From NCBI GenBank assembly GCA_041649315.1, contig JBAZNJ010000001.1:197869-261868 (forward strand): a stretch of 64,000 nucleotides of DNA, written 5' to 3'. The notes below the pieces were generated by a model, which saw nothing but the letters and a program-made list of their open reading frames with translations, did not search any database and had not been told where the DNA came from. Source of the stretch: Patescibacteria group bacterium (GTDB lineage: Bacteria; Patescibacteriota; Patescibacteriia; Patescibacteriales; UBA12465). Each line of letters opens with the position of its first letter. Positions within the stretch are counted from its first letter, which is position 1. Below, in pieces: positions 32,782 to 60,465 of the stretch. A program made the translations under genes and the position numbers.

Positions 32782-32806
32782 ATACTAAAATGTAATAATA
32801 ATCTAT

Positions 32807-35800: not shown

Positions 35801-38800
35801 CGCGATAAAAGTACCGGCCGGACAAACGCCTTCACCATAATTCCGCTCTTCTAATAATAAGACGTTCCCGTTAAAACTATTCGTATCCATCTTCTTATTA
35901 AAATCAACCTTAAGCACGGCATTCCGACAAACATTATTATCTAAATGCTTAGGGGAGCTTAAATCGATCTTCGGCCGCGCCTGACAACAAGTATCAAGCC
36001 CGCAGCCGATATTTTCCGGCGAACCGCAATCTAAATCATTAGTACAGCCGCAGCATAAACCGCGATCATCGCCGGAACAATTACCTTTATCTGCCTCACA
36101 ACTAAGCTTAGAATTGCGGGCGGCGCAGGCATCAGAATATTCCACTCCCTCAACTGTTATCGGCTCGCCCGGCTGGCAGCAACAAGTACCGCAATCCGCA
36201 GAAGACCCGCCGAGATTGCCTTCCGGAGAAAAACAGCCAAAACCTTGAACATTACAAACCTCAGGATCACAAAGAGAAGTATCGCCGGCTGTACATATCA
36301 ATCCCGCCCCGGCTGGTTTATTTGGGCAATATTGCTCGCAAGCGGAAATACTGCTAAAAGAATTTTCTGTTCCTCTAACTGGAGTTGAAGATGCGCATTG
36401 GTTAGGATTACTGGCCGAGCAATCATAATAAGCACACCAACCGGCATCCGCCCCCTCGGCAATCTGATTTCCTAAACGACAAATATCATCATCGGTTGCC
36501 GTTGTTCTATCGGAATCAAAGCAACAACGGGGGTTAGCTCGACAATCACCAAAATCCGTTAAACCCGGGCATGGGTCATTCTGCGGACAGGTTTTTTCAC
36601 AAATTTCTAAACTTTTATAAGGCCCGATCTTTAGCGGATTGGTCGCCGCGCATTCATTAGCATTCGTGGCCGAACAATCATAATAAGCGCAATAGCCAAA
36701 ATCCGGATGGGACGGATCAGCGCTTACTAATCCGTTATTATCGCTGCCGCCGCGGCAAATATCATCGGCCGAATCGCTGGTGCCGCGCGAATCCAAACAA
36801 CAAACACCGGCATGTTCTAAACATCCGGCCGCGCTTAAACTAGAGCAATCGCCACAAAAGCCGTTCGGGAAATTATCATTATCTATTTCGCAATATTGGC
36901 CGCTATGGCCGGAACAATTACAAGTCGCGTCGCGTATTCCGGGATCTTCGCCGGCCGAAGCACAACCGCCACAAAGGCCTAGGCCGATATTTGTATTATT
37001 TTGGCCATCTGTTAATGAAATATCACTACCGCAAGTCCCCTCGCATTGCAAGCCGGCACAGCAATCGCGCGCACTTTCCCCGATTGTACAACAGCAGTCG
37101 CAACTGGCGGCAATCGGCTCTAAGCATTTATTAGTTTCCGCACAAATTGAATCTCCCGGGCAAATTTCTTCCGAGGCACAACAGCCGGATCCATTTACTT
37201 CTATACAAGAAAATTCTTCCGAACAAAGCGAACAAACGGAAATTGGATCTATACAAGTATTACCATTCCCTCGTGCCCATCCATCCGGACAGGAAGTAAC
37301 GCTTTCTATTGTCCAACGGTTTCCTATTTCCTCACTAATATTTTGACAAACTTTTTCTGCTTCGTATTCCTGGCTATTCAAAGTATAAGAAAAAGTTTGG
37401 CTTAAATCGCAGATCGCGTCAGCGCCTTTCTCAAGACAGCGATTAACCGTAGAATCATAAGAACAACCATTCGTCCCTAAGCCGCCGCAACCAGAAACGC
37501 TGATACAACTAAAATCACAATCGGCAATCGCTTTTTGCCCGCCGGCATAAGGAGAACAAAGACCGGGCGTATTCGGACAATAATCATTGGTCTGGCAAGT
37601 ACCATAGTATTCAGATAAACCGGCACAGCTATAAGCATAAGGATTTTCTACTAAATCACCAAAACCGGTACTGAATTTCCATTCAAAAACCGAAGTCGGA
37701 ATATCAACGAAACAATCATTTAAAGAATCAACGCAGCGGCCTTTTCGATAAGTATTTTGCGGACAGCAAACCTGCGTGCCGCAATCCGCGTCAACCCGGC
37801 ATTCTTCCACAGCAAAATCAAGGGCGTTGCCGGTTAAACTATTGCTAACTACTGAAACCGGGCCGGAAATCGCGCCAGCCGGAACTTCGGTTTCAATCAT
37901 ATCCGCCCGCCCATCAAGCTCAATCATCCCGACTGCATTCCGATCATAATTAAATTTTATTAAGCCCTCGCTGTCTTCCCGACCGAAATATTCTCCCCAA
38001 AGGGTTACCGGCGACGCGACCGGACCGCTCAACGGTTCTAATTTACATAAACTCGGCGCCAACGGAGCATTTTTATCCGCTAAGAAAATATTGGGATTTA
38101 ATTTTTCCGTATTAATTACAGCGTCCCCTAAATCAACCATGATAACTTGCGACCCGTCCTCTAAACCGGCCGGAACTTTAACAACGATCTGATTATCTTT
38201 CCAAACCGAATTAAGGCACATTTCCGGAAAATCATAAGTCGCTTCGGTCGCGCCGAAAAAAACCCGGGAAGTGCCGCGGGCGCCGCCAAAACCGTCGCCG
38301 CGGATAGTAACATATTGGCCCGGAGCGCCGCTAAGCGGCGAAAAAGACGCAATAAAAGGTCCATCGCCCGCTTCGCTTTCTTTTACAAAACGAAGGTAAT
38401 TGCTTTTTTCGGCCTGGCCGGATAAATTTACCGTCACGAAACTGCCGGATTCCCCGGCCTTAATATTCGGAGTAAGCGAAGTACCGCTTAAGCCCTCGGG
38501 ATTTGTAAAAACTGACTCTATCGCCCGGACATTAGTTTTATAATTACCAAAATAAGCGGCGGCTGAATATAAATTAACTCCTTGATAATTAACTTCGGAA
38601 CTTAAGGCGCCGCGATTAGGATCAAGATAGCATAAACCCGGACGAACAATATTATTGGCTCGGAAATTCGGAATTTCCGGACCAAAATCATCGTCGGTAT
38701 AATCGCTCGCTCCTTCCTGGCTTACTACCTGGATCGGACCGGAAATCGCGCCAGCCGGAACCGCAATAATTATTTGATCATCGCGCCAAAAATCCGAACA

Positions 38801-39763
38801 GGAGGTATTAAGGACTGACGGGGCAATTCCTTCAACCGGATTGCCGCTTCCGGTAAAAAGAACTTTACTGGCGCCATCCGCGTATTCGCCAAAATTTCTT
38901 CCAAAAATCGTAATAAAATTATCAACCGCGCCGTTCGGCGTTAAAAGGTCGCAAACACCCGAGCAATCATCGTCAGAAATACATGACTGATTAGGATTAT
39001 CAATGCAGAAACCGCCTAAAGGACTTATCTCCGTAATCACCGGCGGCCCATAGCAAAGACAAGTTTCTGGATTACAACTTAAATATTCCGCGCATTGATC
39101 ATTATCGGCTTCACAGGTTTCATTACTCAAATCCCCATCACAAGATGCTCCCAAACCGCCGCGCGGCCGGCAAGCGCAATTAGCTTCATCGCAATAATCG
39201 CTAGACGCGCAAATCTGATTTACGGCCTGGCAACCGGGATTCGGGCTGGAATCGCAGCTAGTCGGATTACCGATTCCGGCGCCGGAACAATCCGACCCGA
39301 CACAAGGACCCCATGATCCATTAGAATAAAGCATTGAACCGCCGCAGCCGCAAGGCGCCAAGCTCCCTTCTTCGTAACCGCCCCCAGTGCCGCTAACTGC
39401 GTTACCTAAACGCGTTAAAATAAAAGTAGCAATTCCCCAAGACGCCAAAATAATCACTAAGCCGATAACGCCGCTTTTTAAAATTTTCTTGGCTTTTTCT
39501 ACTTTTTCTTCTTCGCCGCCGGAAGTCATCCAAATAAAGCCGCCATAAATCACGAAACCGACCGCGATAATTCCTAAAAACCCTAAAGCAATATTAATAA
39601 TCCGACCGGCAATCGTCCGCGGATCACCAGCCGCCAAAGCACCGTCCAAACCGCTCTCTACCGCCTCCGTACCGAAGTCCTGGGCAAATACCAAACGCGC
39701 TAAAAGCAGCCCACCGGCAATGAGTAAGAAAAATAATAAATTTTTACTGATTTTTTTTCGCAC
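32807..39763 (-). CDS. giant Cys-rich surface protein (2318 aa) with an N-terminal TrbC/VirB2-like pilin module
   Basis: Signal peptide ...RLVFAQ, then two TM helices flanking TSGGEEEKVEKAKKILK. Several IPT/TIG-like units follow (PVITEISPLGG.., FSPLSGAPGQYVTIRGDGFG, LEPLSGPVASPVTLWGEYFG). It also has FN3-like units, five tandem CxxxCxGKCGGAxDGCGGxC repeats and a C-terminal jelly-roll-like domain ending in CRYTF. Confidence 0.85.
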   Translation of the reverse strand: MRKKISKNLLFFLLIAGGLLLARLVFAQDFGTEAVESGLDGALAAGDPRTIAGRIINIALGFLGIIAVGFVIYGGFIWMTSGGEEEKVEKAKKILKSGVIGLVIILASWGIATFILTRLGNAVSGTGGGYEEGSLAPCGCGGSMLYSNGSWGPCVGSDCSGAGIGNPTSCDSSPNPGCQAVNQICASSDYCDEANCACRPRGGLGASCDGDLSNETCEADNDQCAEYLSCNPETCLCYGPPVITEISPLGGFCIDNPNQSCISDDDCSGVCDLLTPNGAVDNFITIFGRNFGEYADGASKVLFTGSGNPVEGIAPSVLNTSCSDFWRDDQIIIAVPAGAISGPIQVVSQEGASDYTDDDFGPEIPNFRANNIVRPGLCYLDPNRGALSSEVNYQGVNLYSAAAYFGNYKTNVRAIESVFTNPEGLSGTSLTPNIKAGESGSFVTVNLSGQAEKSNYLRFVKESEAGDGPFIASFSPLSGAPGQYVTIRGDGFGGARGTSRVFFGATEATYDFPEMCLNSVWKDNQIVVKVPAGLEDGSQVIMVDLGDAVINTEKLNPNIFLADKNAPLAPSLCKLEPLSGPVASPVTLWGEYFGREDSEGLIKFNYDRNAVGMIELDGRADMIETEVPAGAISGPVSVVSNSLTGNALDFAVEECRVDADCGTQVCCPQNTYRKGRCVDSLNDCFVDIPTSVFEWKFSTGFGDLVENPYAYSCAGLSEYYGTCQTNDYCPNTPGLCSPYAGGQKAIADCDFSCISVSGCGGLGTNGCSYDSTVNRCLEKGADAICDLSQTFSYTLNSQEYEAEKVCQNISEEIGNRWTIESVTSCPDGWARGNGNTCIDPISVCSLCSEEFSCIEVNGSGCCASEEICPGDSICAETNKCLEPIAASCDCCCTIGESARDCCAGLQCEGTCGSDISLTDGQNNTNIGLGLCGGCASAGEDPGIRDATCNCSGHSGQYCEIDNDNFPNGFCGDCSSLSAAGCLEHAGVCCLDSRGTSDSADDICRGGSDNNGLVSADPSHPDFGYCAYYDCSATNANECAATNPLKIGPYKSLEICEKTCPQNDPCPGLTDFGDCRANPRCCFDSDRTTATDDDICRLGNQIAEGADAGWCAYYDCSASNPNQCASSTPVRGTENSFSSISACEQYCPNKPAGAGLICTAGDTSLCDPEVCNVQGFGCFSPEGNLGGSSADCGTCCCQPGEPITVEGVEYSDACAARNSKLSCEADKGNCSGDDRGLCCGCTNDLDCGSPENIGCGLDTCCQARPKIDLSSPKHLDNNVCRNAVLKVDFNKKMDTNSFNGNVLLLEERNYGEGVCPAGTFIATGESLAEIALDNSDSDSFSLELKQSRLVRLSSRLASLWLKLFGRFNDSALADMPDPNKLYCAVPGDVSSENNGESTSLLFVPKRLLSPAANYYLIVLGDTELNSRSGVLSMEGIGLNGSGYLNVSKEDYDGGNYSSNDYVEGENIFFNKRTYKNSQIIKFTTLSGQDPTSGICAIDEVLVSPSSYLFKTSENSLDENDSDPAAKTFDTEADRDKVFAARAYSANGQILRPVSGYFWDWEFDIANGEVASLEEVSSDRILVRAEPGITDGETMITATVNMERFLDEGNCNDNLNCVCEGEICSNNCCNFYTGGDKFNNFSNIYLFLCNNPWPPVAPDGTWEPWFDNCPAGLGASCADYNYKFYYCRDAGAAGTLDDLPAIIDQAVIRGISSNLICSSDQSPCVSAGEVCGADKNGDSVPDGICIWNVLKESYFFREALPAGSEIIEAIDREIGGTVSLAWRSEAAQVYSYKIYYSSGSGEMFFKELKASEVCSLVDGSYECRSLINNLENNIPYIFKISAVSESRTESGLSGELSVMPTDKVPPATPAAPSLSVVDSLLKFSWPANADKVSFYRLYRGVSVKAYGESFDSAGPNTSLSFPLNQFSVGNNYFSLSAFDEYDNESIKSDELSCELSLREGCEDFSASDCGPQLDCCSKDCSGKCGGAPDGCGGTCTADCPEFEKCVNQVCEACVPDCAGKCGGAVDGCGGYCDDACSSSGEACINQRCQQICTPDCAGKCGGAVDGCGGTCTTACPQGQECINEVCRNICTPDCAGKCGGAADGCGGTCMAACPGFEKCVSQVCQACVPSCVGKAPCADNGCGGTCAVPCNGDDPCLQISVDNFYEVYLNGTKVAITYPSSSREYIDVYSENGMVSSRCSNDMCWTDIRPLPVTLRTGNNVLAIKAINDGGVYGLAARLVDGCNTVISTNNPNNWVCTEVTPAMNWMNTSFSTNSYWRAAIETGKTGNGNRLYPAVNQLWATTASGAKSTADTIYCRYTF
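33305..33844 (-). repeat. five tandem ~37-39-aa Cys-rich repeats (about 111-117 bp each) in the 2318-aa gene
   Basis: CSKDCSGKCGGAPDGCGGTCTADCPEFEKCVNQVCEA / CVPDCAGKCGGAVDGCGGYCDDAC.. / CTPDCAGKCGGAVDGCGGTCTTAC.. / CTPDCAGKCGGAADGCGGTCMAAC.. / CVPSCVGKAPCADNGCGGTCAVPC. Confidence 0.85.
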
Positions 39764-39788
39764 AGATTAAATTTAGTATTTACAAAAA

Positions 39789-42494
39789 TTATTGGCAACT
39801 TCCATTCGTGCCAAGTATATCGGTCGGGACACCGAAACAACAAGAAGGATATTCGTCGGTCGCCGAGCAACCCGGACCGATACTTGGCTTATAACAATTC
39901 TGATAAATATCTTTAACGCCGGAGCCGACCTGGACTTTATAAGTCATGGACTCGGCAAAAGGTGAATGAAAGATATTAACAATACTTAAATCCGGCTCGC
40001 CATCCAAAGGTTCAACATCTAAATTATCTACTTTCATCCAATATCCGAGCGGGGACGGCGAAGCCGCGCTTAAATTAATCAATCTATGTTCAACCGTAGA
40101 AGTTCCGCTCTTTACCTTTAAGCCGCCGCTTTGCAAAGTGCTATTCATCATTAAAGTATTAAACTTAATTTTAACCGGCTCAACCAAAGGCAGGCCGCTT
40201 TGCCCGGCCGAAGGGCTTATTTCCGTGATCACCGGCGGGTCTAAAGCAATCTGATCGTTGATGTAAAAAGACCATTTATATTTATCCTTTTTCCCAGCGT
40301 TAACTATTGAATCATAATTATCATGATAAAAATCCAAAGGCCCGTCGGCATAGGCGCTCCGATCGCCGTCAAAAGAATTGATTGCCGCGTCCACGATCCC
40401 GTCCAAGGAGCTTAAATTTCCAGCCGGATAATTCTGGCCGGCGTCATCCTGGCAGGTCTTATAACCCAAAGAAGTGTCTCGGCAATTTATAAACGGCACT
40501 AAAGCCGAACAGTCGCTATCGCTTTCACAGGTCTTAAGATTGGCCGGCAGCATTTCCATAGCTAAATGGCTATTAGCCGGCAAACAATAAATTTCCTCGC
40601 CGCAACCGTTGACGCCGCATTTAACATCGGAAATAAACTCCAAGGTCTTATAATTATTGCTCACGACGAATTTCCCGCCCAAATAATCACCGACGCAAAC
40701 ATTGTTTTCGCATTTATAAGATCGACATTCCGAGGCCGCGCTGCAAGCCGCACCGGCCGGAAAAGCTTCAGTAGCGGCATTAACGACCCGGATATGGCCA
40801 GCCACTTCTCCGGCCGTGCCGGAAACGGTCGCCGGATTAATCGCTTCATTAAAATTAACCTGGATTACAGAATTCATCGGCCGATCTTTTTTATCCAACG
40901 GCTCATCGGTTTTTTCTAAATCCGTGCCGCCAGAAAACGACTTCAATCCTAAAACCGAAACAGCCGTTGTCGTTAATGAAATATTATTACCGTCCTCGCC
41001 AGCAACCCGCGCCGTTAAAATCACTTTATCTCCTTCTTTAAAAACTTCCAAATCTTCCCGGCCGCTTAATTTCGCCGTAATATTTTTTGCTAATTCATCA
41101 TTACTATAACTATCCGGCACTAAAATATTATTATTCTCTCCAGAAGCGGCAAAAGAATATATTTCCCCCCCGACCTCGAGGGTATCAGCTAAGCGTTCCG
41201 GGCTGATTTTTATATTCCATAGATATTCTGCCTTAACCGAATCTGATTTAAAGGTTAAATAATTATTAAAAACCGCCTGGCCGGAAACCAAATCCGCAAT
41301 ACCTAAAAGATTATTGGCACCGTCAAAAAGCTGGACTTTGTCATCGGCGCCGTCAGGCACGGAAACGATAAAATCAGAAACGCTTCCATGATAATCTAAA
41401 ATCACCGAAGCGCCACTCGGCGTCGTCGGAGTGGCCGGTGTAACCGAAATCACTTCGGCCGGCGCATAAACCGCCGGCTCACCCAGGACCGTTATCGCCG
41501 CGCTAGCCGGTGCGGCTGGAGTTATTTGCTGATAAATATCTTTAATATTATCCGGAATCGGAAATACTCCGGTCGGGACGACTAAAGGCGGGGTTAGATC
41601 TAATTTATCGCTAACTGTAAATTCCCATTGAGCGCCGGAGACATTGCAACCAGTGAACATTGAAGAATCGTCTGTTTTCTTAATATAATCGCTTAATTTA
41701 ACAGAATAAGCGGTTTCCCCGCTGGCCGAACCTAAAAAGCTCAAAGGGCTTAAAATAAAAGTTTTATCCTCGCCGGTAACCGTTACTAAAACATCGGTCA
41801 CATTCGCGTTCTCCTCCGGGCAAGAAGAAGCCGAACAAGAATCGCCTAAAGCGCTCTTATACAAACGGACCGCTAAAGGATTAAGGCGATTACAATCTTC
41901 TTTATCACAAACGCAAGGCGTTGCCTGGCTATTAATACAAAGGGTGTCGGTTTTTATTTTTTCTTTTAGGGTAACCATGATTGAAGTATTGCGCGGCACG
42001 TCCTTTTGGCCGTCGGCCGGATAAACACTATCAACCGCGCAGGCACCGATGGCCGCTGTGCCAGAGCCGGAGATACCGGCCCGATTTGAATCGGCCGGAC
42101 TGCCAGTAATTCCTAAAGCGTCGGATAAGCGAGAAAGTAAAAAAGTTGTTATTCCCCAAGAAGACAAAACTATAACCAGGCCAATAACCGCGTTTTTGAG
42201 AATATTTTTCGCTTTCGTTATTTTTTCTTCATCGCCGCCCGAAGTCGTCCAGATAAACCCGGCGTACATTATTATCACAACCGCGAGTACTCCTAAAAAG
42301 CTTAAGGCAATCTGGATAATCCGGCCGATAATCATCCGCGGGTCAGCCGAAGACAGGGTCCCGCCCAAGCCGCTTTCCACCGCTTCTACGCCAAAATCCT
42401 GAGCCGCGACTGGTAAAGAAAACAAAAAACCGCCCGCCGCAACTAAGGCCAGCCAAGCAAAAATAATCATAATCGATTTTACTTTTCTAGTCAT
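39789..42494 (-). CDS. large surface protein (901 aa from ATG 42494) with an N-terminal TrbC/VirB2-like pilin module and Big_5-type Ig domains
   Basis: MTRKVKSIMIIFAWLALVAAGGFLFSLPVAAQ signal, then a module 65/97 identical to that of the 2318-aa protein. SbsA/Big_5-like segments (VDSVYPADGQKDVPRNTSIMVTL, MNSVIQVNFNEAINPATVSG, ISPSAGQSGLPLVEPVKIKFN). The longer track ORF (to 42737) overlaps the divergent rel gene and is rejected. Confidence 0.8.
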   Translation of the reverse strand: MTRKVKSIMIIFAWLALVAAGGFLFSLPVAAQDFGVEAVESGLGGTLSSADPRMIIGRIIQIALSFLGVLAVVIIMYAGFIWTTSGGDEEKITKAKNILKNAVIGLVIVLSSWGITTFLLSRLSDALGITGSPADSNRAGISGSGTAAIGACAVDSVYPADGQKDVPRNTSIMVTLKEKIKTDTLCINSQATPCVCDKEDCNRLNPLAVRLYKSALGDSCSASSCPEENANVTDVLVTVTGEDKTFILSPLSFLGSASGETAYSVKLSDYIKKTDDSSMFTGCNVSGAQWEFTVSDKLDLTPPLVVPTGVFPIPDNIKDIYQQITPAAPASAAITVLGEPAVYAPAEVISVTPATPTTPSGASVILDYHGSVSDFIVSVPDGADDKVQLFDGANNLLGIADLVSGQAVFNNYLTFKSDSVKAEYLWNIKISPERLADTLEVGGEIYSFAASGENNNILVPDSYSNDELAKNITAKLSGREDLEVFKEGDKVILTARVAGEDGNNISLTTTAVSVLGLKSFSGGTDLEKTDEPLDKKDRPMNSVIQVNFNEAINPATVSGTAGEVAGHIRVVNAATEAFPAGAACSAASECRSYKCENNVCVGDYLGGKFVVSNNYKTLEFISDVKCGVNGCGEEIYCLPANSHLAMEMLPANLKTCESDSDCSALVPFINCRDTSLGYKTCQDDAGQNYPAGNLSSLDGIVDAAINSFDGDRSAYADGPLDFYHDNYDSIVNAGKKDKYKWSFYINDQIALDPPVITEISPSAGQSGLPLVEPVKIKFNTLMMNSTLQSGGLKVKSGTSTVEHRLINLSAASPSPLGYWMKVDNLDVEPLDGEPDLSIVNIFHSPFAESMTYKVQVGSGVKDIYQNCYKPSIGPGCSATDEYPSCCFGVPTDILGTNGSCQ

Positions 42495-42512
42495 TGGATT
42501 TCTAAGTAAAAA

Positions 42513-42561
42513 TTTAAAATTATGCTTGTCTATGCTATAATAATATAGCTTTATTATAACA
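42513..42561. promoter_or_regulatory. divergent extended -10 promoter candidates (rel on +, surface locus on -)
   Basis: Plus strand: TTTAAA (42513-18), 17 nt, then TGcTATAAT (42533-41). Minus strand: TGtTATAAT, which is the reverse complement of 42553-42561. Confidence 0.4.
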
Positions 42562-42587
42562 TAAAAAGAGAAAAATAAAAAAGGGTT

Positions 42588-44057
42588 ATGACGATTGACC
42601 GCGTAGTTAAAAAATTCTCTGATAACCACCCCGGCGAGGACGTCGCTGTTCTTTACCGGGCCTTTGAATTTGCTAACGCCGCCCATAAGGACCAAGCTCG
42701 AAAAAACGGCGATCCCTATATCCAACATCCGCTCCATACCGCCTATATTTTAGCGGAAATCAAGGCGGATTTAGCGACTATTGCGAGCGGGCTACTTCAT
42801 GACGTCCCGGAAGATACGCCGCATACTCTTGAAGAGATTGACGAACTTTTTGGGCCGGAGATTGCTTCTTTAGTCGGCGGTATTACTAAGCTTGGAAAAA
42901 TAAAATATCGTGGCATTGAACGCTACCGCGAAAATCTAAGAAGAATGTTCCTGGCCATGACTAATGACTTACGGGTAGTCTTTATAAAATTTTGTGATCG
43001 TTTGAATAATCTCCGAACGATAGAAAATCTGCCACCGGAAAAACAAAAAAGAATTGCTAAAGAAACCATGGAAATCTATGTGCCGATTGCCGGGCTCTTA
43101 GGAATCGCCCGGTTAAAGTGGCAAATGGAGGACATCTGTTTTAAAATCCTTTACCCCGATGAATTCCAGGCTCTAGAATATAAATACGAAGTGGAAAAAA
43201 AAGTCGAGCGCAATCGTTTTTTTCAAAAGGTTAAAAACATTATCGTCCCGAAATTAAAAGAAACCGGAATTGAACACTCAATTGAAATCCGCTTCAAGCA
43301 TCTTTATAGCATCCATCAAAAAATGCAGGAAAAGAATCGTAAATTCGATGAGATTTACGACGTTTTCGCCTTGCGCATCATCGTCCCGACGATTGATGAC
43401 TGTTATAAGACGCTGGGCATAATCCATACTTTATGGAAACCAAAGCCGCATCGTTTCAAGGATTATGTCGCTGTCCCTAAACCTAATGGCTATCGGTCCA
43501 TCCATACCACGATTATCGGCCCGGAGAACAAAGCCACAGAATTCCAGATCCGGACAAAGGAAATGCACGAAGAGAGCCTTTACGGTTTAGCGGCCCATTG
43601 GTATTACAAAAATAAAACTAAAACAACCAATTACGCGGCCCCGCATTGGGTTAAAGAAATAATTGAAATCCAAAAAGAAATCAGTAATACGGACGAATTG
43701 GTAAAAAAAATAAAATTAGATATTTTTCGAGATCGGATTTTTGTTTTCTCACCAAAGGGGGATGTTTTCGAGCTCCCGGAAGGCGCGACCCCGGTCGATT
43801 TTGCTTATGCTGTCCATACCAATATCGGCAACAAGGCTTCCGGCGCCCTGATCAATGATAAGCTCGGCCGACTTGACCAGGAGTTAAAAAACGGCGATTT
43901 CGTAAAAATCATTACGGAAAAAAACCGCGAATACCCGAATCGCGACTGGCTAAAATTCGTCCGTACCCGGAAAGCGCGCGAACGCATCAAGCAATATACT
44001 AAAAAATCCCGCCTGGAAACTATCAAGCGCTTCATCCCGGGAATGAATCGAGAATAA
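42588..44057 (+). CDS. bifunctional (p)ppGpp synthetase/hydrolase, short Rel/SpoT homologue (HD + synthetase + TGS, no ACT/RRM domain)
   Basis: HD motif LLHDVPEDT, synthetase core YRSIHTTI and a TGS segment IFVFSPKGDVFELPEGATPVDFAYAVH. 489 aa. Confidence 0.9.
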   Translation: MTIDRVVKKFSDNHPGEDVAVLYRAFEFANAAHKDQARKNGDPYIQHPLHTAYILAEIKADLATIASGLLHDVPEDTPHTLEEIDELFGPEIASLVGGITKLGKIKYRGIERYRENLRRMFLAMTNDLRVVFIKFCDRLNNLRTIENLPPEKQKRIAKETMEIYVPIAGLLGIARLKWQMEDICFKILYPDEFQALEYKYEVEKKVERNRFFQKVKNIIVPKLKETGIEHSIEIRFKHLYSIHQKMQEKNRKFDEIYDVFALRIIVPTIDDCYKTLGIIHTLWKPKPHRFKDYVAVPKPNGYRSIHTTIIGPENKATEFQIRTKEMHEESLYGLAAHWYYKNKTKTTNYAAPHWVKEIIEIQKEISNTDELVKKIKLDIFRDRIFVFSPKGDVFELPEGATPVDFAYAVHTNIGNKASGALINDKLGRLDQELKNGDFVKIITEKNREYPNRDWLKFVRTRKARERIKQYTKKSRLETIKRFIPGMNRE

Positions 44058-44375: not shown

Positions 44376-45744
44376 ATAACCCACCCTCCTTTCTATTAAT
44401 TATTTTCTTTTCTATTAACTTATCTTTCTTAGCTAAACGCTCCTTAATCTTTTTATAAACCACGGTCTCTTGTGCCCCGGAATCAATATCGCGCATTAAA
44501 ATAGTCCCGTCCATAATCTCTTTTTTCCCTAAAATCAAGGCAGTTTTTGCGCCTAAAGCCGTCGCTTCCTCTAATTGTGTCTTTAAACTATCCGCGGCGA
44601 ATGATTGGCGGACCTTAAAACCGGATTGATGTAAATCATTAAATAATTGCATTGACTTTATCTTCGCCTGATCACCAAGCTGAGCGATAAAAATAACTTC
44701 TTCTTCTTTTTTATCAAACAAAGATTGCTTATCTTTTATTCGCATCACTGTCCGTTCCAGGCCGATCGCCAAACCAACAGCCGGCGTTTCCGGGCCACCT
44801 AAATTTTCAACCAAAGAATCATAGCGTCCGCCCCCGGCCAGCGCCATCTTGCCTAAGACCGCGCCGTCTTCATTCAAAGGCCAGAATTCAAAAACCGTAT
44901 CATTATAATAATTCAAACCGCGAACCAAATAAGGATTAAAATTATAATTAACATCAAGCTCGTCTAAAAATTCCAAGGTCTTGGCAAAATGCTCGCGGCT
45001 TTCCGCCGACAAAAAATCAGCAATCTGCGGCGCTTCTTCCCGTTCCTTAACGCAAGTGTCCTCTTTGCAATCTAATAAGCTCAAGCAATATTTGCCTAAG
45101 TTCTTCTTGCAATTATTACACAATTTTGAACGCCGTCCTCTTTCCTTATAAAAAGCCAAAAGTTTCGCGCTATAATCTTTCCGGCAATCAAGATCTCCGA
45201 TGCTATTGATCTGAACCTGGATCTTTATCTGCAAATCCGCAAAAAAATTATAAACCGCCGCGATCAACAAGGCCTCGGATAGAGGTTTCTTTTCGCCGAT
45301 TATTTCTATATTAGCCTGCGTTGATTCACGATAACGACCGGTCTGCAATTTCTCATGGCGGAAAATCGACCCGAGAGAAAAAAGACGGACTAATGAGGCG
45401 TTTTCATTCAAATTATTTTCTAAATAAGCGCGGATTACGCCCTGGGTTATTTCCGGCCGCAAGATTACCCGTTCACTTTTTTCCCCTTCAACAAAATAAA
45501 ATTCCTTATCCGTATTCTTGCGCGTGGATTTTTTATACAAATCAAAACTTTCTAAAATCGGCGTCTTAATCGGAGAAAAATTATAGATCTTGGCAAAATT
45601 TAAAAGCTTATCAGACACCAATTCAAAATAACGCGCTTCCGGGCCAACAAAATCTTTCATGCCTAAAAGCCGCTTTGAAGTTTTATTATTTTTCTTTTCA
45701 ATTTTTTGCGCCGTTTCCGGAGCATTTTTTTTCGGTCTAGGCAT
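44362..45744 (-). CDS. hisS: histidine--tRNA ligase
   Basis: Class II motifs (LRPEITQGVIRAY; FRHEKLQTGRYRE; GGGRYD) and a C-terminal anticodon-binding domain. 460 aa with a short basic N-terminal extension. Confidence 0.93.
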   Translation of the reverse strand: MPRPKKNAPETAQKIEKKNNKTSKRLLGMKDFVGPEARYFELVSDKLLNFAKIYNFSPIKTPILESFDLYKKSTRKNTDKEFYFVEGEKSERVILRPEITQGVIRAYLENNLNENASLVRLFSLGSIFRHEKLQTGRYRESTQANIEIIGEKKPLSEALLIAAVYNFFADLQIKIQVQINSIGDLDCRKDYSAKLLAFYKERGRRSKLCNNCKKNLGKYCLSLLDCKEDTCVKEREEAPQIADFLSAESREHFAKTLEFLDELDVNYNFNPYLVRGLNYYNDTVFEFWPLNEDGAVLGKMALAGGGRYDSLVENLGGPETPAVGLAIGLERTVMRIKDKQSLFDKKEEEVIFIAQLGDQAKIKSMQLFNDLHQSGFKVRQSFAADSLKTQLEEATALGAKTALILGKKEIMDGTILMRDIDSGAQETVVYKKIKERLAKKDKLIEKKIINRKEGGLYGGL

Positions 45745-45751
45745 ATAAAAT

Positions 45752-46318
45752 TTAATTATATTGCGGCCAATAATCTTTATTAAAAACCATTACCTTATCT
45801 AAAGGCCAACCGCGGAATAAAATTTTTCCCGTGATAAAACTTTTATGGACCGGGCCGAAACTCCGCGAATCTTTTGAGGCATTGCGGTTATCTCCTAAAA
45901 CATAATACTCATCCGAGCCAATCGTAATTTTTTCTTCACTATTATTAAAAGTCGTCAAATCTTCCGGCAAATATTCTTCGTTTAAAACAAGCCCTGTCGG
46001 ATTTTCTTCATTAAAAATATTAATTTGGCCGTCTTTAATCTGGATACTCTCGCCCGGCAAGCCGATTACTCTTTTAATAAAATATTCCTGCGGATTGCGG
46101 GGATAACGGAAAACAATAACCTGGCCGCGTTCCGGCGGCGTAAAGCGATAGCTAAGCTCATCGATTATCAGATATTCATGGTCATGGAAATTCGGTTCCA
46201 TAGACGCACCTTTGACATAAAAAGGTTGAATTAAAAAATAACGCACCGGTAAAATAATCGCTAGAGAAATAGCGACCACTTTAGTTATTTCCCAAATAAA
46301 TATAAGAAATTTTCTCAT
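45752..46318 (-). CDS. lepB: signal peptidase I
   Basis: GASMEPNF (catalytic Ser), KRVIGLPGE (Lys box) and GDNRNASKDSR. The start is set at ATG 46318 (MRKFLIF); the track ORF starts at an upstream TTG. Confidence 0.9.
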   Translation of the reverse strand: MRKFLIFIWEITKVVAISLAIILPVRYFLIQPFYVKGASMEPNFHDHEYLIIDELSYRFTPPERGQVIVFRYPRNPQEYFIKRVIGLPGESIQIKDGQINIFNEENPTGLVLNEEYLPEDLTTFNNSEEKITIGSDEYYVLGDNRNASKDSRSFGPVHKSFITGKILFRGWPLDKVMVFNKDYWPQYN

Positions 46319-46458
46319 AAAAAATAAAATAATCTTTAAAGATTTGGCAGCCGGTCTTAATACGAAACCTGTTGCCAAATACTATTTTTATCCTAAGTTC
46401 CTTAAAAAACACGACAATCAGCTCTTAGTATATCAGAAAAATAAAAAAAAATCAAATC

Positions 46459-46580
46459 ACTTATTTTAGCTGATATTTAATAAATAAACATCGCATCCCC
46501 ATAACTGAAGAAGCGGTAATGGCGGCGGATAGCCTCCTGATAGGCGCGATTGATATATTCTTTGCCGGCTAAAGCGGAAA
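46459..46580 (-). pseudogene. displaced copy of the queA 3' end (last ~33 codons + stop + 18 nt), att-like direct repeat A
   Basis: 115/122 nt identical to 48199-48320. It translates [32 protein letters not shown] but has no upstream queA body. Confidence 0.85.
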
Positions 46581-48198
46581 TAAAAAAAGCGACAATTTTA
46601 GCCGCTTCTTATTTACAAATTCCTCCTGCGACAAACCCGCAGGATTAATTAATTAATATTTTTTGTATTTGCCACCCCGACGACAAATACTTACTGACCG
46701 CCACTATATAGACTCCGGCTTCTATTGGCTTCCAAGTAACCTCATTTTTTTCAAAAAAAGAGACGACTTTCCGGCCACAAATATCAAATATTTGTATTTG
46801 ACACTCATGACCATTATTTACAACTATAGTTAGCTCATCGGCGCCGGCGATACATGGATTCGGAAAAATTTTTATTGCCTCCTTTATTGCCTCCTTTAAT
46901 ATTTCATTTCTTCCAACACTTAGTAATGTGTCTTCTGTAACAGCCGAGGAATCAACAACCGGATCATTACCGGCGGAATCTATCTCTGCAACATTATACG
47001 GCGGAATTACTAATTTGAATAATGAATCGCCACTGATGAAAAAAGCCGTATTCCCAAAACTGGCAAGATTATCAACTTCGCCATTCCAAACTTTTTGAAA
47101 AAGTGGTTGGTAGGTTTCAGTTTCTTCATTCCTAAAAAAATTAGTCTGACCGGATTTTAAACAGGAATACATTAAACCTTCTTGCCCTCCTTTAAATAAT
47201 ATATTATCAGGAGAAGAAGAAAGAGAAAAAAGAGAAAAAATAGATGTATTATTAACTACAAATATAGTATCTAAATATTTTCCTTGCCCGCCTGGCCACA
47301 TTCCGTTAAACATCATAACCACTTCTTCATTGGCGATAATTTGTCTCCCCCCTCTTAACCCGAAAAAATCCTCACTATAAATGGTTTTTCCGTTACAATA
47401 TTCCCGCACTTTCCAGGTATTATAGTAATCAGAAAAAACTATATAAAGCTTTCCGCATCGCGCAATACAATCAGAAAAAAAAGCATAATAATGTTCTCCT
47501 CGCGGACTTACCGTCCCGGTAGTGTCAAATTCTTTTTCCCAAACATCCCCATTTAAACAAAAAATTAAGGATGTATCTGGAAGCAAATCGCCATATCGCC
47601 AAGCGATTAAATACCATTTATTATCTAACATAGCCGCACTTCGAGCGCTTTTAATAATAGTATCTAAAATAAAGGGGGTGTTTTGTTTTTTTCTAAATAT
47701 TTCCCCCTTAGCGCTAATCGCTAAAATTTCTTTTATTTGCTCGGCGACAACAATATTTGTTATTGCTTCTTCAGAAATTTTTTCTACAGAAATTTCATTT
47801 CCATCAGCAATCAAAATTGAACCATCTCCCATAGCAACAATAACAGTGCTATCGTCAATCGCACTCATAGCCATACTGGCAGCAGGAAGATTTGAAATAC
47901 TATTAATCCGAACCGAATCTGAAAAATCAGAACTCGTATGAGCTAATACGCTACCAACTGCTAAGCTAAAACTTAATAATAATACTATTTTCATCATTTT
48001 TAATTTTTAATTAATACTTATATTTAATTACTCATTAAGCCCCTGAAAATAAAGTGATCTGAAGAAGATGTCAGAAACTTAAAGAATAATTAAATATGAG
48101 TAAATAATCATTATTTTTGTTAAAGGGCTAATAATTCTTATCAAACTACCACAAACAAAAAAATAAGTCAAACATAAGAATAAAACGCTTTAATATTG
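46581..48198 (-). mobile_element. 1.6-kb low-GC insertion (island remnant) between the two queA 3'-end repeats; no recombinase present
   Basis: Bounded by the 122-bp direct repeats and carrying a single ORF. AT-rich: for example, 47221-47280 has 10 G+C of 60 by hand count. Confidence 0.5.
46645..47997 (-). CDS. secreted protein with a T9SS-type (Por) C-terminal sorting domain (450 aa)
   Basis: Signal peptide MMKIVLLLSFSLAVGSVLA. The C-terminus IKIFPNPCIAGADELTIVVNN..CQIQIFDICGRKVVSF...IEAGVYIVAVS....QIQKILIN matches the Por_Secre_tail pattern (PNP..., iyD..Gr.V, GvY.v.v, K..k). Confidence 0.7.
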   Translation of the reverse strand: MMKIVLLLSFSLAVGSVLAHTSSDFSDSVRINSISNLPAASMAMSAIDDSTVIVAMGDGSILIADGNEISVEKISEEAITNIVVAEQIKEILAISAKGEIFRKKQNTPFILDTIIKSARSAAMLDNKWYLIAWRYGDLLPDTSLIFCLNGDVWEKEFDTTGTVSPRGEHYYAFFSDCIARCGKLYIVFSDYYNTWKVREYCNGKTIYSEDFFGLRGGRQIIANEEVVMMFNGMWPGGQGKYLDTIFVVNNTSIFSLFSLSSSPDNILFKGGQEGLMYSCLKSGQTNFFRNEETETYQPLFQKVWNGEVDNLASFGNTAFFISGDSLFKLVIPPYNVAEIDSAGNDPVVDSSAVTEDTLLSVGRNEILKEAIKEAIKIFPNPCIAGADELTIVVNNGHECQIQIFDICGRKVVSFFEKNEVTWKPIEAGVYIVAVSKYLSSGWQIQKILIN

Positions 48199-48320
48199 AC
48201 TTATTTTAGCTGATATTTAATAAATAAACATTGCGTCCCCATAGCTGAAGAAGCGGTAATGGCGGCGGATAGCCTCCTGATAGGCGCGATTAATATGCTC
48301 CTTGCCGGCTAAAGCGGAAA
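48199..48320 (-). repeat. att-like direct repeat B (functional 3' end of queA)
   Basis: See 46459-46580. The offset between copies is 1740 bp. Confidence 0.85.
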
Positions 48321-49338
48321 CCAACATTAAAAGCGTTGATTTCGGCAGATGGAAATTAGTTATTAGCGCGTCTATGATTTTAAATTCATAGCTGGGATAA
48401 ATAAATATATCGGTCCATAAAGAGCGAGATTTAAGACCGTCTTGTCCATCGTGCCAATCAAGCGACTCCAAAACCCGGCAACTAGTCGTCCCGACCGGGA
48501 TAATTCGTCCACCCGATTTTTTCGTCGCTAAGATTGCTTTAATCGTCGCCGCGCTTATTTCCGCAAATTCGCTATGCATCTTATGCTCATTGATTTTTTC
48601 CGTTTTTACCGGCGCGAAAGTCCCGAGCCCGACATGTAAAGTCACATATACTATTTTTACGCCTTTAGCTTTTATTTTCTTCAACAGGCCTTTAGTAAAA
48701 TGCAATCCGGCCGTCGGAGCGGCCGCCGAACCGACTTTATGTTCGTCGGCAAAAACGGTTTGATAATTTTCCTTATCGCCGACAACTTTTTTATTGCGCT
48801 TAATATAGGGCGGCAGAGGAACAATACCAATCTTGTTAATCGTTTTCCAAAAAGCCGCCCCGCCTTGATTAAACTTTACCTGCCAAGTGCCGTCCTGATT
48901 ATTTTTTAAAATTTCTGCTTTTAATCCAGCTCGTTTCCGTTCGACTGTTTTTTTTCCGGCCGCAATCACTTTGTTCGTGTTTGATGTTAGCAAAAATTCC
49001 ACAACCTGCCTCTCTTTAACCCGTCCGCCGATTAAACACTCCCAAACATTGGCGGACGCTTTACTATCGCTTAATTTACGATGCAAAAAAACTTCCACCG
49101 CCCCGCCGGTCTCCGCTTTCCGTCCGATTAGCCGCGCCGGAAAAACTTTAGAGTTATTCAAAACTAGAAGATCGCCGGGCTTAAAATAATCGACTAAATC
49201 ATAAAAATGTTTATGCTCCATCGCCCCGGTTTTTTTATTCAATAACAAAAGCCGCGAATGGTCTCGCGGTTTAACCGGTTTTTGGGCGATGAGCTCGGGA
49301 GGTAATTTATAATCAAAATCGGATACAGTATAGGACAT
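48217..49338 (-). CDS. queA: S-adenosylmethionine:tRNA ribosyltransferase-isomerase
   Basis: MSYTVSDFDYKLPPELIAQKP... matches the QueA N-terminus, with the C-terminal ...SYGDAMFIY. The start is set at ATG 49338, 5 nt after the upstream stop. Confidence 0.93.
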   Translation of the reverse strand: MSYTVSDFDYKLPPELIAQKPVKPRDHSRLLLLNKKTGAMEHKHFYDLVDYFKPGDLLVLNNSKVFPARLIGRKAETGGAVEVFLHRKLSDSKASANVWECLIGGRVKERQVVEFLLTSNTNKVIAAGKKTVERKRAGLKAEILKNNQDGTWQVKFNQGGAAFWKTINKIGIVPLPPYIKRNKKVVGDKENYQTVFADEHKVGSAAAPTAGLHFTKGLLKKIKAKGVKIVYVTLHVGLGTFAPVKTEKINEHKMHSEFAEISAATIKAILATKKSGGRIIPVGTTSCRVLESLDWHDGQDGLKSRSLWTDIFIYPSYEFKIIDALITNFHLPKSTLLMLVSALAGKEHINRAYQEAIRRHYRFFSYGDAMFIY

Positions 49339-49342
49339 AGAT

Positions 49343-49936
49343 TTAAACATTTTTTCTTTTAACCGTAATTTTTCGCCTAACAATAAGCAGTCCAATAAAA
49401 GCGCTATTAGAAACGACCAGGGCGGCGGGGTAAAGCCAGGTCGTCGGATTATAAGCCTCTAGGGCAAATAGACTTAAGATAATTCCAATCGTAGTTATAA
49501 TAAAAGTCGGCAAAGTTTCTTCATGCGGCTTATAATAAGCTTTACGAAAAGTTGGAACATAGGCCAGGGTATCAATAACAATTGCTAAAATAACGGCGGA
49601 TAAAGGATTACTAGTTAATAGCCATAAAACCAAGGCTAAAATTGCGCCCCCAAAAGACAATTTATCAATCAAGGTAATATTTCTTTCCCCTCTTTTAATT
49701 GCCAAAGCAAATATAATCAGACAAACTAAAGCCGTTGTTCCGTTAGCCCAAGACCCGGCGCCCGCGCCTTTAACCACTTGCGCCGCGTAAGTTATTCCTC
49801 CTAATAAGCCCCAAACTAACCAAGAAAAGATATGGGGCTTGGCTCTTCCTTTAAAAATATCCCGAAAATATGGGATATAAGCTAGGACAGCAACAATGGA
49901 AGCGACGGCCCCTAAGATTATTTTATAATTGTTCAT
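49343..49936 (-). CDS. polytopic membrane protein with an internal two-fold repeat (PQ-loop/SWEET-like layout)
   Basis: AYIPYFRDIFKGRAKPH and AYVPTFRKAYYKPHEET occur at equivalent positions of two 3-TM halves. 197 aa. Confidence 0.45.
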   Translation of the reverse strand: MNNYKIILGAVASIVAVLAYIPYFRDIFKGRAKPHIFSWLVWGLLGGITYAAQVVKGAGAGSWANGTTALVCLIIFALAIKRGERNITLIDKLSFGGAILALVLWLLTSNPLSAVILAIVIDTLAYVPTFRKAYYKPHEETLPTFIITTIGIILSLFALEAYNPTTWLYPAALVVSNSAFIGLLIVRRKITVKRKNV

Positions 49937-58113: not shown

Positions 58114-59014
58114 TAACGCCGTCGGAATTATTCATGGCCGCCCGTAAAGCCGACGGCATTATTTTTAATTGAAATTTTTTTAAAATTTTTTCTAGGCGGT
58201 CACCAAAGGGATTCGACTTGGCTATTGGCGCACCCGGCGTAGACACTATTTTCGAAAAACAACTTTCAGCCATTACCGACCCAGGCGCATCAACTATTAC
58301 ATCATCCGAAAAATGCCGTCTATCCGTCGCTGTTTCCCGATTCCCCGGTGCCTTGTCGCCCAAGCCGTTCGCCGCCTGAAAATTTTCATAAACCTTATCC
58401 TTATTATACAACAAAACTAAATCTTTTAGCCAATAATCAAAATAGGGATCGCCGCCAGGAAGTTTTAAATCATCAAGATTCAGATAATCCGCGGTTATAT
58501 AAAAGCTCAAACAGATTTTATCCCGCTTCTGTCCGGCTCGCGGCCGGCTATTTAATAATTTTGCCAGGCCGGCGCAATAAAAACGGCTTAACCATAAACG
58601 GCGCGGCGCGGTAATGATAAAAAAATCAATATCGCTTCCATCGCGCAAATTATGGGCGCCTAAAGAATTTGCTACGGCAATGACTTTTACAAAAGGGGCC
58701 AGGGAAAACAAACGGACAAAACGAGCCGCCTTTTTGATTTTTCGCCGCGCGTAATTATAACGCTCCTGCCTGATGGTAACTATTTCTTCTCGGCCGGCTA
58801 AAAAATAAAAGCCGTTTTCGGACCCAATCCGGCCGCTAAAACCAGCGGCACCATCAGCTAAAACTTCCATGATTTCCACTAATGCGAATTTCTTACCTAA
58901 ATACTGATAAATTTCAAAAGCGGTCAGAGGATAATTAAACAAATCAAAGAAAGCAATCGTTTTAAGGATCACCTGGGTTAAGCTGTCTTGATGAATGTTA
59001 TCTTTAATTATCAT
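58010..59014 (-). CDS. hypothetical protein with a nucleotidyltransferase-fold motif
   Basis: GSDIDFFIIT (G-S-x-D-x-D) motif. 334 aa, with a 4-nt overlap with the upstream gene. Confidence 0.45.
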   Translation of the reverse strand: MIIKDNIHQDSLTQVILKTIAFFDLFNYPLTAFEIYQYLGKKFALVEIMEVLADGAAGFSGRIGSENGFYFLAGREEIVTIRQERYNYARRKIKKAARFVRLFSLAPFVKVIAVANSLGAHNLRDGSDIDFFIITAPRRLWLSRFYCAGLAKLLNSRPRAGQKRDKICLSFYITADYLNLDDLKLPGGDPYFDYWLKDLVLLYNKDKVYENFQAANGLGDKAPGNRETATDRRHFSDDVIVDAPGSVMAESCFSKIVSTPGAPIAKSNPFGDRLEKILKKFQLKIMPSALRAAMNNSDGVIVNDCVLKFYLRDRRREFKEKYGHKINEIMPARD

Positions 59015-60363: not shown

Positions 60364-60465
60364 AAAAAATGTTGTCTGCTGGAGAGAGTAAGCGCCCTGG
60401 TCACAACCATCACAAAAATTTTATGCGCCTTAATTTTAAGACAAAATTCAGGTACTAGGCTTATA

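Follow-up and report, generated by a model that had tools for sequence, protein, structure and literature searches.

Naturally transformable bacteria undergo RecA-dependent insertion of the Campbell type as well as homology-facilitated illegitimate recombination. Among the elements described from bacterial genes, e14 (and phage 21) resides in icd of Escherichia coli and is associated with the pseudogene fragment icdC, as given in PMC13626634 (Hill et al. 1989 therein). The CIMEs of streptococci are att-flanked remnants of ICE/IME, which are devoid of integration and transfer genes and are located at the 3' ends of housekeeping genes (PMC5704250).

A locus that resembles these systems is present in an uncultured member of the Patescibacteria, within the 64,000-nt stretch of DNA that was analysed (the window; GCA_041649315.1, contig JBAZNJ010000001.1, positions 197,869-261,868 of the forward strand). 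As in e14/icd, the repeats at queA represent the 3' end of the target gene, the gene is intact, an orphan C-terminal fragment resides at the far junction, and the differences between the copies are biased to the third codon position (6 of 7 in 122 nt at queA; 11 of 12 in the 165-nt repeats measured at icd/e14/icdC of MG1655). By contrast, the queA insert is 1.6 kb with a single ORFan, while e14 is 15.2 kb, carries intE and xisE, and is known to excise. Similarly to CIMEs, the queA insert is without an integrase and is bracketed by repeats, one of which holds the end of a housekeeping gene that is therefore undisrupted. CIMEs, however, are recognised via a related ICE/IME at the same att site, of which none was found for the queA site, nor any integrase or conjugation module, and are streptococcal, whereas the host here is a patescibacterium. 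The RecA route is similar in that foreign DNA lies beside a short anchor of homology, a single crossover duplicates that homology and mosaic exchange tracts with relatives surround the queA site. The likeness is limited by the queA copies, which share only 47 nt of perfect identity, and by the 1.7-kb circle that must be assumed; nor does the RecA route predict a second clade in which the same spacer is occupied, again with target duplication.

As the architecture is already known from e14/icd and CIMEs, the advance is incremental. queA was not found reported as an attachment site; the sole literature match is from Pseudomonas, where a tRNA-Leu gene lies downstream of queA. Patescibacteria have tiny genomes that are rich in lineage-specific genes of unknown origin, the acquisition of which is poorly documented. 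The queA locus is a concrete, datable case in which an entire expression cassette encoding a secreted ORFan was gained, with both neighbouring essential genes undamaged. If a recombinase is involved, the phylum would gain a defined attachment site and cassette type; if RecA acts alone, short gene-end homologies would let competent, reduced genomes gain genes.

Features of the queA-lepB region (positions are those of the window)
Feature	Position	Strand	Remarks
lepB-hisS tract near-identical to the nearest relative (P lineage)	44479..46324	-	two adjacent differences (45646-45647) in 1846 nt
Hypervariable hairpin, lepB leader	46324..46393	-	32 differences in 70 nt versus nearest relative
lepB promoter-like site	46427..46455	-	TTGATT, 17-nt spacer, TATACT, upstream TG
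Repeat copy A, orphan queA 3' fragment	46459..46580	-	directly upstream of the lepB promoter
Insert (cargo cassette), 1618 bp	46581..48198	-	missing from eight related lineages
Terminator-like hairpin and T-run closing the cassette	46584..46610	-	T-run adjoins copy A at its first bases
Cargo gene, 450-aa ORFan	46645..47997	-	sole gene of the insert
Cargo leader/promoter region, 201 nt	47998..48198	-	32-nt inverted repeat, 48015-48046 / 48071-48102
Repeat copy B, true queA 3' end	48199..48320	-	continuous with the queA body; stop codon 48217-48219
queA, tRNA preQ1(34) S-adenosylmethionine ribosyltransferase-isomerase, intact	48217..49338	-	373 aa

A repeat search (94% identity) returns one 122-nt direct repeat, the copies of which (A and B) are spaced by 1740 bp and are identical at 115 of 122 positions on a position-by-position count. 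Each copy is composed of 2 nt, 33 codons, the stop codon and 18 nt of spacer, and the similarity ends abruptly at both repeat edges. The seven differences (A/B positions 46492/48232, 46495/48235, 46504/48244, 46552/48292, 46557/48297, 46558/48298 and 46561/48301) are all transitions and all fall in the coding part; six are synonymous at codon position 3, and the other is a His (B) to Tyr (A) difference at codon position 1. From 5' to 3', four differences occur in the first 29 nt, three in the next 60 and none in the last 33; the longest perfect identity is 47 nt, and a further identical block is 33 nt. Only one-third of the possible transitions in the coding stretch are synonymous, and the probability of at least six synonymous changes in seven is 0.007 (P ~0.007-0.02 overall for the synonymous bias). 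Copy B completes a full-length queA, the product of which matches Pfam Queuosine_synth over profile positions 1-322 of 322, while copy A lacks a start codon and follows an in-frame stop codon. The original prediction, which was made from this DNA alone, is thus accurate in its account of the repeats: their length, identity and offset match on recount, and the makeup of both copies, the pattern of six synonymous third-position differences plus one Tyr/His change, and the status of A as an orphan with only B joined to the queA body are all reproduced.

The cargo protein has a signal-peptide-like segment at its N-terminus (MMKIVLLLSFSLAVGSVLA) and a T9SS type-A sorting domain at its C-terminus, which scores 29.7 bits against TIGR04183 (above the cutoff of 23) and 24.8 bits against Pfam PF18962 (below the family cutoff). 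Word-indexed and full HMMER searches (5.8e9 and 1.84e9 proteins) return only the protein itself and one weak match to the C-terminal domain, and no relatives are detected in PHROGs, PADLOC, PDB sequences, phage DNA or plasmids (tblastn). The insert as a whole has no match among phages, plasmids and viral contigs. A single-sequence AlphaFold (AF2) model of the cargo protein is not usable (pLDDT 35.6). The cargo leader includes a promoter-like site (48074-48046), and Rfam gives no match to the cassette leaders or to that of lepB. The GC content of the insert is ~0.29-0.39 compared to ~0.40-0.45 in the flanks. A third, degenerate copy of the queA end at the right end of the insert was considered and rejected, as it does not rise above shuffles. 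With regard to a dif/Xer site, no GC-skew turn is seen at the locus.

The insert, whose only ORF is the 450-aa ORFan, encodes neither a transposase nor a tyrosine or serine recombinase, and no such domains are found in the 41 ORFs of at least 120 aa scanned in the 64-kb window outside three giant ORFs at 28903-42737; the claim that no integrase remains holds for both the insert and the scanned ORFs. Features of elements that target gene 3' ends include: (i) attL/attR-like repeats, which are present and one of which completes an intact queA, (ii) an unoccupied attB-like site, which is present in related genomes, and (iii) a tyrosine or serine recombinase gene inside the element, usually beside one att site, which is absent here. 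The locus matches the structure of a CIME, in that a repeat-bracketed insert is without recombinase or transfer genes, the att function of the repeats being assumed; no mobilising ICE/IME with a shared att site is detected in viral or metagenome contigs. Thus, a cassette with no recombinase may be a CIME-like remnant or may have been moved in trans. An insertion sequence or transposon is rejected, since the insert has no transposase and no inverted repeat that pairs its ends, and a diverged duplication of 122 nt is not a transposon target-site duplication. An integron gene cassette, which would call for an attC site near an intI/attI platform, finds no support either, since no integrase is found in the scanned ORFs of the 64-kb window and the cassette has its own promoter region and terminator.

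The empty site to which the original prediction had pointed as a check, with queA followed directly by the lepB promoter, is found in eight related lineages (the P lineage, L082-L089; L091/92; L093; L094; L096/97; L098; L099-102; and L103), all of other species than the source genome. The P lineage is the nearest relative, with a QueA that is 84% identical to that of the window, and BLAST alignments to L082-L085 break exactly at the repeat edges. Beyond these lineages, a scan of GTDB QueA proteins returns mostly Firmicutes at ~50% identity and no close relative, and none of 80 GTDB queA loci has a second queA C-terminal fragment. When searched as a wobble-degenerate pattern in JGI metagenome contigs, the repeat is found only at the relative's own queA; it is not found in IMG/VR viral contigs.

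The queA end of the nearest relative differs from copy B at 3 of 122 positions and from copy A at 8 of 122. Synonymous divergence (pS) to the relative is 0.10 in copy B versus 0.53 in the queA codons just upstream, while that of copy A (0.30) is near the genome background (0.34-0.39). The last 33 nt of copy A and the 65 nt that follow (98 nt in total) are identical to the relative. A derived Lys to Glu change at repeat position 21 is common only to A and B among 12 sequences; thus, the phylogenetic signal of the repeat is mosaic.

A second occupied site is present in the L090/L095 clade, where the same queA-lepB spacer holds a different, unrelated ORFan cargo. The L090 cassette has a shorter direct repeat across the queA stop codon (1940-1992 / 3467-3519) and encodes no recombinase. 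The repeats of the window and L090 differ in extent, and their overlap is confined to the final ~15 coding nt and the spacer. On the QueA tree, two gains are more parsimonious than one gain and three losses. At their left ends, the inserts of the window and of L090 show weak similarity (p ~0.01-0.02); homology of the left ends was set aside as evidence, being marginal to L090 and absent to L095.

The best reading of the locus, to which we assign a probability of roughly 0.6, is single-crossover (Campbell-type) integration of a circular DNA that carried a copy of the queA end. The small circle would have included a promoter, one ORFan gene for a secreted protein, a terminator, and its own queA 3' end with spacer. 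One crossover between the circle and the chromosomal queA end would duplicate the 122-bp target, leave queA intact, keep the lepB promoter beside lepB and place an untranslated fragment of the queA end at the far junction. In support of this reading, the two copies bound precisely the segment that relatives lack, empty sites are seen in eight lineages, both junctions recur in an independent assembly, and the insert has lower GC, its own terminator and ORFan cargo; the synonymous bias matches that measured for e14, and the L090/L095 clade is occupied at the same spacer, with two gains favoured on the QueA tree. The circular intermediate and the single crossover are what we infer. The crossover may have occurred within the first 19 identical nt, such that copy B would be element-borne, as in e14, or within the last 33 identical nt, which overlap the L090 repeat, such that the first 89 nt of copy A would be element-borne. 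The low pS of copy B compared to the codons upstream, together with the near-background pS of copy A, fits an imported B and a native A. The nearness of B to the relative, however, could also reflect the homologous exchange behind the lepB-hisS identity, and the Glu codon common only to A and B argues that neither copy came from a distant donor. Nor is it established, as originally proposed, that the native end was displaced to become the orphan copy: the relative's end is nearer to B (3 differences) than to A (8). Points against this reading are that no recombinase is found in the insert, the scanned ORFs of the window or the L090 cassette, that the repeat is absent from IMG/VR and confined in JGI contigs to the relative's own queA, that the window and L090 repeats differ in extent, and that the cargo has no relatives, so that no element family is visible.

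The catalyst of such a crossover is tentatively either a site-specific integrase, acting in trans or since lost, or RecA acting on the 122-bp homology; each is possible, and we give them equal and limited weight. The synonymous divergence of the copies had been taken as a sign of site-specific integration: the bias is real. A RecA-dependent route is equally open, given the near-identical tract that starts ~135 nt from copy A. The accompanying claim of foreign DNA agrees with the absence of the insert from eight lineages, its lower GC and its ORFan cargo. The site-specific 'att' route attached to that claim is not demonstrated, as no recombinase is found and no repeat-bearing element is seen elsewhere in viral and metagenome contigs.

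An alternative that we judge unlikely, yet worth weighing in full, dispenses with the circular element: the orphan fragment would have been made or kept by homologous exchange with empty-site relatives. The DNA taken up (queA end, lepB promoter and lepB) would recombine on the lepB side and, on the other, end inside the queA-end homology or be joined to it illegitimately (homology-facilitated illegitimate recombination), while the cassette itself would have entered the spacer by a separate illegitimate insertion. On this view, copy A would derive from a functional queA of another lineage, which would explain why the differences are synonymous-only. Consistent with exchange, the only near-identical tract in 21.2 kb (46324-44479) abuts the site, a further 98 nt, starting at position 90 of copy A, are also identical to the relative, the divergence of A falls from 5' to 3' (4, 3, 0) as nested tracts ending in homology would give, and phylogenetic signals inside the repeat conflict. 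By contrast, exchange needs at least two independent events and an illegitimate join exactly at the terminator T-run, leaves unexplained the target duplication of L090 at its own cassette, and does not account for positions 1-89 of copy A, which are unlike the only known exchange partner (8 differences).

It is also conceivable, if rather improbable, that the spacer between the queA stop codon and the lepB promoter serves clade-wide as a dedicated landing pad for small ORFan cassettes that are self-expressed and recombinase-less. Repeated capture would proceed via a short core at the queA stop codon (ATGTTTATTTATTAAATATYAGYTAAAATA), catalysed by an unrecognised chromosomal or helper-encoded recombinase. 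If true, this would represent integron-like gene capture in ultra-small genomes.

Gene replacement, in which a foreign block (a complete queA and the downstream 450-aa gene) took the place of all but the end of the native queA, is very unlikely. Copy A would be the last 101 nt of the native gene, and the 'repeats' would be the homologous ends of two queA genes. This fits the queA body, which has a dS of 0.84 and dN of 0.10 to the nearest relative compared to a dS of 0.46-0.55 in neighbouring genes. The last 101 nt of queA, unlike the gene body, are not unusually diverged from the nearest relative, and the supposedly foreign B end is the most relative-like (pS 0.10 versus 0.53 just upstream). 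Moreover, the homology runs 18 nt past the stop codon and halts exactly where the lepB promoter of relatives would begin, and the gene upstream of queA (197 aa), an ancestral one, belongs to no imported block.

Local duplication of the queA end, with neutral decay of copy A and a later insertion between the copies, is just as improbable as gene replacement. The derived Glu codon common only to A and B speaks for a duplication, as do the changes that can be placed unambiguously on the branch to A, which number only two, one of them non-synonymous. With the nearest relative as outgroup, however, six changes map to that branch, five of them synonymous (P ~0.02), while copy A has accumulated no indels or stop codons. 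Local duplication offers no mechanism by which a whole expression cassette would come to lie precisely between the copies, and the target duplication recurs in L090.

The Logan contig SRR8542065_17541, from an independent assembly, is 100% identical to window positions 46522-48228, carries four copy-A-specific variants adjoining the insert, and ends exactly where 31-mers become common to A and B; thus, both insert junctions are present in reads. An assembly artefact, whether a strain mis-join or an empty chromosome plus a 1.74-kb circle threaded via the 47-nt core, is therefore very unlikely: short k-mers cannot phase copies with identical blocks of 47 and 33 nt, and a cross-strain join could itself underlie the 1.85 kb that are identical to another lineage, yet each of the two unique junctions (from insert end to A-type repeat and from insert start to repeat) recurs at 100% in the Logan assembly, the junction of insert and copy A cannot come from a strain mis-join, and the variant with a circle and an empty site would still be an att-type system.

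A segment specific to the window at 58970-61178 was considered as a second insertion of this type and rejected, as it has no flanking repeats. The 197-aa gene between ruvB and queA has been lost in the nearest relative. The lepB-hisS tract includes the only identical runs of at least 250 nt in the 21.2 kb aligned to the relative, starts ~135 nt from copy A, and may reflect a recent homologous exchange or, alternatively, an assembly join across strains. The lepB promoter-like site, which begins 4 nt past copy A, is conserved throughout the empty-site relatives. The hairpin of the lepB leader (fold z = -2.4) sits between two stretches that are identical to the relative.

A repeat search recovers a single long direct repeat at the 3' end of queA, whose two copies (copy A, an orphan fragment, and copy B, the end of the actual gene) are offset by 1740 bp and are identical at 115 of 122 positions when compared base by base. 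Each copy includes, on the minus strand, 2 nt, 33 codons, a TAA stop and 18 nt, and the similarity stops sharply at both repeat edges. Copy A is without a start codon and has an in-frame stop just upstream. The seven differences are all transitions within the coding part: six are synonymous and at third codon positions, and one is at a first position and specifies His in B and Tyr in A. Since just one third of the possible transitions in the repeat coding stretch are synonymous, the probability of at least six synonymous changes among seven is 0.007. The original prediction, read by a model from the sequence alone, described the locus correctly: its coordinates, offset and identity are confirmed, as are the joining of B to the queA body and, codon by codon, the six synonymous differences and the Tyr/His change, and its account of ~33 codons, stop and 18 nt per repeat needs only the extra 2 nt. 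The window belongs to a Patescibacteria MAG contig of 377 kb, on which the minus-strand genes around the locus run uvrD-like helicase, ruvB, a 197-aa membrane protein, queA, the insert, lepB (signal peptidase I) and hisS, with relA/spoT next after hisS on the opposite strand. No tRNA or tmRNA gene is found near the locus.

Features of the queA locus in window coordinates
Feature	Position	Strand	Size	Remarks
Copy A	46459-46580	minus	122 nt	orphan queA 3' fragment
Copy B	48199-48320	minus	122 nt	completes queA
queA	48217..49338	minus	373 aa	Pfam Queuosine_synth matched over full profile
Insert	46581-48198		1618 bp	one real gene
Cargo gene	46645..47997	minus	450 aa	ORFan
Terminator-like hairpin	46610-46584			3' of cargo gene; T-run adjoins copy A
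AT-rich leader			201 nt	5' of cargo gene
lepB promoter-like site	starts 4 nt past copy A			TTGATT, 17-nt spacer, TATACT, TG upstream

The nearest relative of the window genome (the P lineage) was recovered from at least six samples, as contigs that are nearly identical (L082-L089), and encodes a QueA (P0003) that is 84% identical to that of the window. Its synteny is as in the window, with the lepB promoter and lepB coming directly after queA. When the P-lineage contigs are aligned to the window by BLAST, the alignments stop at exactly the repeat edges, and their single queA end matches both copies. Seven more distant lineages (L091/92, L093, L094, L096/97, L098, L099-102 and L103) are empty as well, all with the queA stop, a spacer of ~20 nt and TTGATT. 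Thus, the insert is derived, and the predicted empty site, in which queA leads into the lepB upstream region, exists.

The insert has a GC content of ~0.29-0.39, compared to ~0.40-0.45 in the flanks. Its cargo protein has a hydrophobic N-terminus that reads as signal-peptide-like and a C-terminal T9SS type-A sorting domain (29.7 bits for TIGR04183, whose cutoff is 23; Pfam PF18962 stays slightly under its own), and has no match but itself in 5.8 billion clustered proteins or in 1.84 billion representatives searched with HMMER. T9SS is an outer-membrane system of Bacteroidota, and the Patescibacteria are not known to have an outer membrane; the domain may have another role here or may be a sign of foreign origin. 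Repeat search reveals no inverted repeats that pair the two insert ends. As predicted, no integrase is detected: recombinase, transposase and phage-like domains are absent from the insert and from the 41 ORFs of at least 120 aa scanned in the 64-kb window, the giant ORFs at 28903-42737 being set aside.

Given an intact gene, an exact duplication of the gene-end target and cargo between the copies, the simplest topology would be one crossover between the chromosome and a circular DNA that itself bears the target (Campbell model). Integration of this type, from a foreign circular DNA, is favoured, with a probability of about 0.58 that is divided about evenly between RecA using the 122-nt homology and a site-specific recombinase that either works in trans or has since disappeared. 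RecA is in keeping with the lack of a detected recombinase or element family, with the absence of the queA-end repeat, as part of an element, from viral and other contigs, and with a tract of apparent exchange that adjoins the site. A site-specific recombinase is in keeping with a second clade that is hit in the same spacer, again with target duplication. Of the predicted site-specific foreign integration, the foreign DNA, the empty site and the two functional-looking gene ends stand, but the 'att' label is not established.

The second occupied site is found on contig L090 (QueA 71% identical to that of the window), in the order queA, a 139-aa membrane ORF, a 235-aa ORF, lepB promoter and lepB. 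Both cargo ORFs are ORFans without Pfam matches and are flanked by a direct repeat (1940-1992 / 3467-3519; offset 1527 bp; 77% identical over 53 nt), of which the clearly homologous part spans the last ~5 queA codons, the stop codon and ~24 nt of spacer. L095, the sister of L090 in the QueA tree, has after queA a clearly homologous promoter/leader module, before the contig ends (local score 58 versus 12 +/- 2 when shuffled). In the tree, the window falls beside the empty P lineage and L090 beside L095, so that two separate gains are a more parsimonious history than a single gain with three losses. At their left ends, the window insert and the L090 insert are marginally similar (p about 0.01-0.02), which is left out of the argument. 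A conserved leader of ~38 nt precedes each ORFan cargo gene (L090 2059-2096 and 2582-2619; L095 2479-2500), with a GTCCAsTCCACyCGGAACGGAC hairpin, next TAAAAT and GGAGG, and a loop CUCCA complementary to UGGAG of the ribosome-binding site. This motif is without an Rfam match and is found neither in the window nor in viral contigs.

The orphan fragment was also predicted to be the displaced native end. Between the window and the P lineage, uvrD, ruvB, relA and an M16 peptidase provide a background dS of 0.46-0.55 (pS 0.34-0.39). Copy A, with 8 differences from the P-lineage queA end (pS 0.30), is at background divergence and thus behaves as native sequence. Copy B, with 3 differences (pS 0.10), is anomalously close to the P lineage; the 100 queA codons directly before the repeat have a pS of 0.53. 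Under an e14-type model, this pattern would mean that B arrived with the element and that A is the displaced native end. The queA body has a dN of 0.10 and a dS of 0.84, both above neighbouring genes, and includes a hypervariable stretch (48850-49050, just 50-60% identical to the P lineage) that coincides with an inserted, variable QueA segment of this clade.

Three facts confound the reading of B as imported and A as native, and the signals conflict. First, lepB-hisS (46324-44479) has two adjacent differences (45646-45647) in 1846 nt compared to the P lineage, whereas neighbouring genes have a dS of ~0.5; the tract holds the sole identical runs of at least 250 nt in 21.2 kb of alignment, and a 98-nt stretch that starts at repeat position 90 in copy A and takes in the lepB promoter is identical as well. 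The tract would stem from a recent homologous exchange between the lineages or, with lower probability, from an assembly join across strains; it adjoins the site and could also account for the closeness of copy B to the P lineage. Second, of the 12 queA ends compared, copies A and B alone have a derived Glu codon (repeat position 21), and copy B and the P lineage alone have a derived A (position 89). Third, overlap between the L090 repeat and that of the window is limited to the final ~33 nt of the latter, where A and B do not differ; use of a core common to both sites would put the crossover there, and the element-borne part would be the first 89 nt of copy A instead of copy B. The divergence fits a displaced native end, but the claim is not established.

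Exchange may instead have generated or refreshed the orphan fragment, with an unrelated insertion, although this is unlikely. Copy A as the remnant of a replaced queA is improbable and is contradicted by the closeness of copy B to the P lineage. Local duplication followed by neutral decay of the orphan copy has similarly little to recommend it, as synonymous changes make up five of the six on the A branch (P about 0.02). The independent Logan assembly of run SRR8542065 includes a 1707-bp contig identical to window 46522-48228, which ends at the exact points where 31-mers turn common to both copies and links four copy-A-specific variants to the insert end; both novel junctions are thus real k-mer paths in the reads. 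With both junctions spanned by k-mer paths, an assembly artefact is improbable.

The proposed Campbell-type integration at a gene end has a counterpart in E. coli MG1655, examined as a control, where the last 165 nt of icd are within the cryptic prophage e14 and the orphan fragment icdC is just past the far end (PMC13626634); the icd end and icdC have 12 differences, 11 at third codon positions. The architecture is that of the queA locus (gene-end duplication, intact gene and orphan fragment at the far junction), which behaves like an e14/icd-type attL/attR pair. IMEs commonly integrate into housekeeping-gene 3' ends without disruption, and integrase-less att-flanked derivatives are termed CIMEs (PMC5704250). 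The queA locus has the structure of a CIME but lacks the cognate ICE or IME that the term requires and, without an integrase, is not a self-contained integrative element. The literature searched contains no description of queA serving as an attachment site. The locus is filed as a new member of the known e14/CIME-type class, from a phylum with hardly any description of such elements, and is a clean case of a reduced genome gaining an ORFan at a hot spot rather than a new kind of system.

Other differences from the P lineage are noted in the window. The lepB leader includes a 70-nt patch (46324-46393) with 32 differences between identical stretches; it forms a hairpin in the window (fold z = -2.4) and in the P lineage, there followed by a T-run, and may be a fast-evolving terminator or attenuator. 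The 197-aa gene between ruvB and queA (49343-49936), a multi-pass membrane protein without a Pfam family, is present in L090, L091, L093 and L098 and missing in the P lineage, where queA directly follows ruvB; the difference is a loss in the P lineage and not a gain in the window genome. Between RmuC and the gene after it, the P lineage lacks a 2.2-kb segment (58970-61178) that encodes a short-chain dehydrogenase and a PEP-utilising mobile-domain protein; no direct repeats above 8 nt flank the segment. The three giant ORFs (982-2318 aa) have counterparts on the P-lineage contig L082 with T4SS_pilin (two of them), Big_5 and TIG matches, and a TrwB/TraG-type coupling-protein homologue is encoded at 7806-9869; together these may form machinery for the uptake or transfer of DNA that bears on foreign DNA entry.
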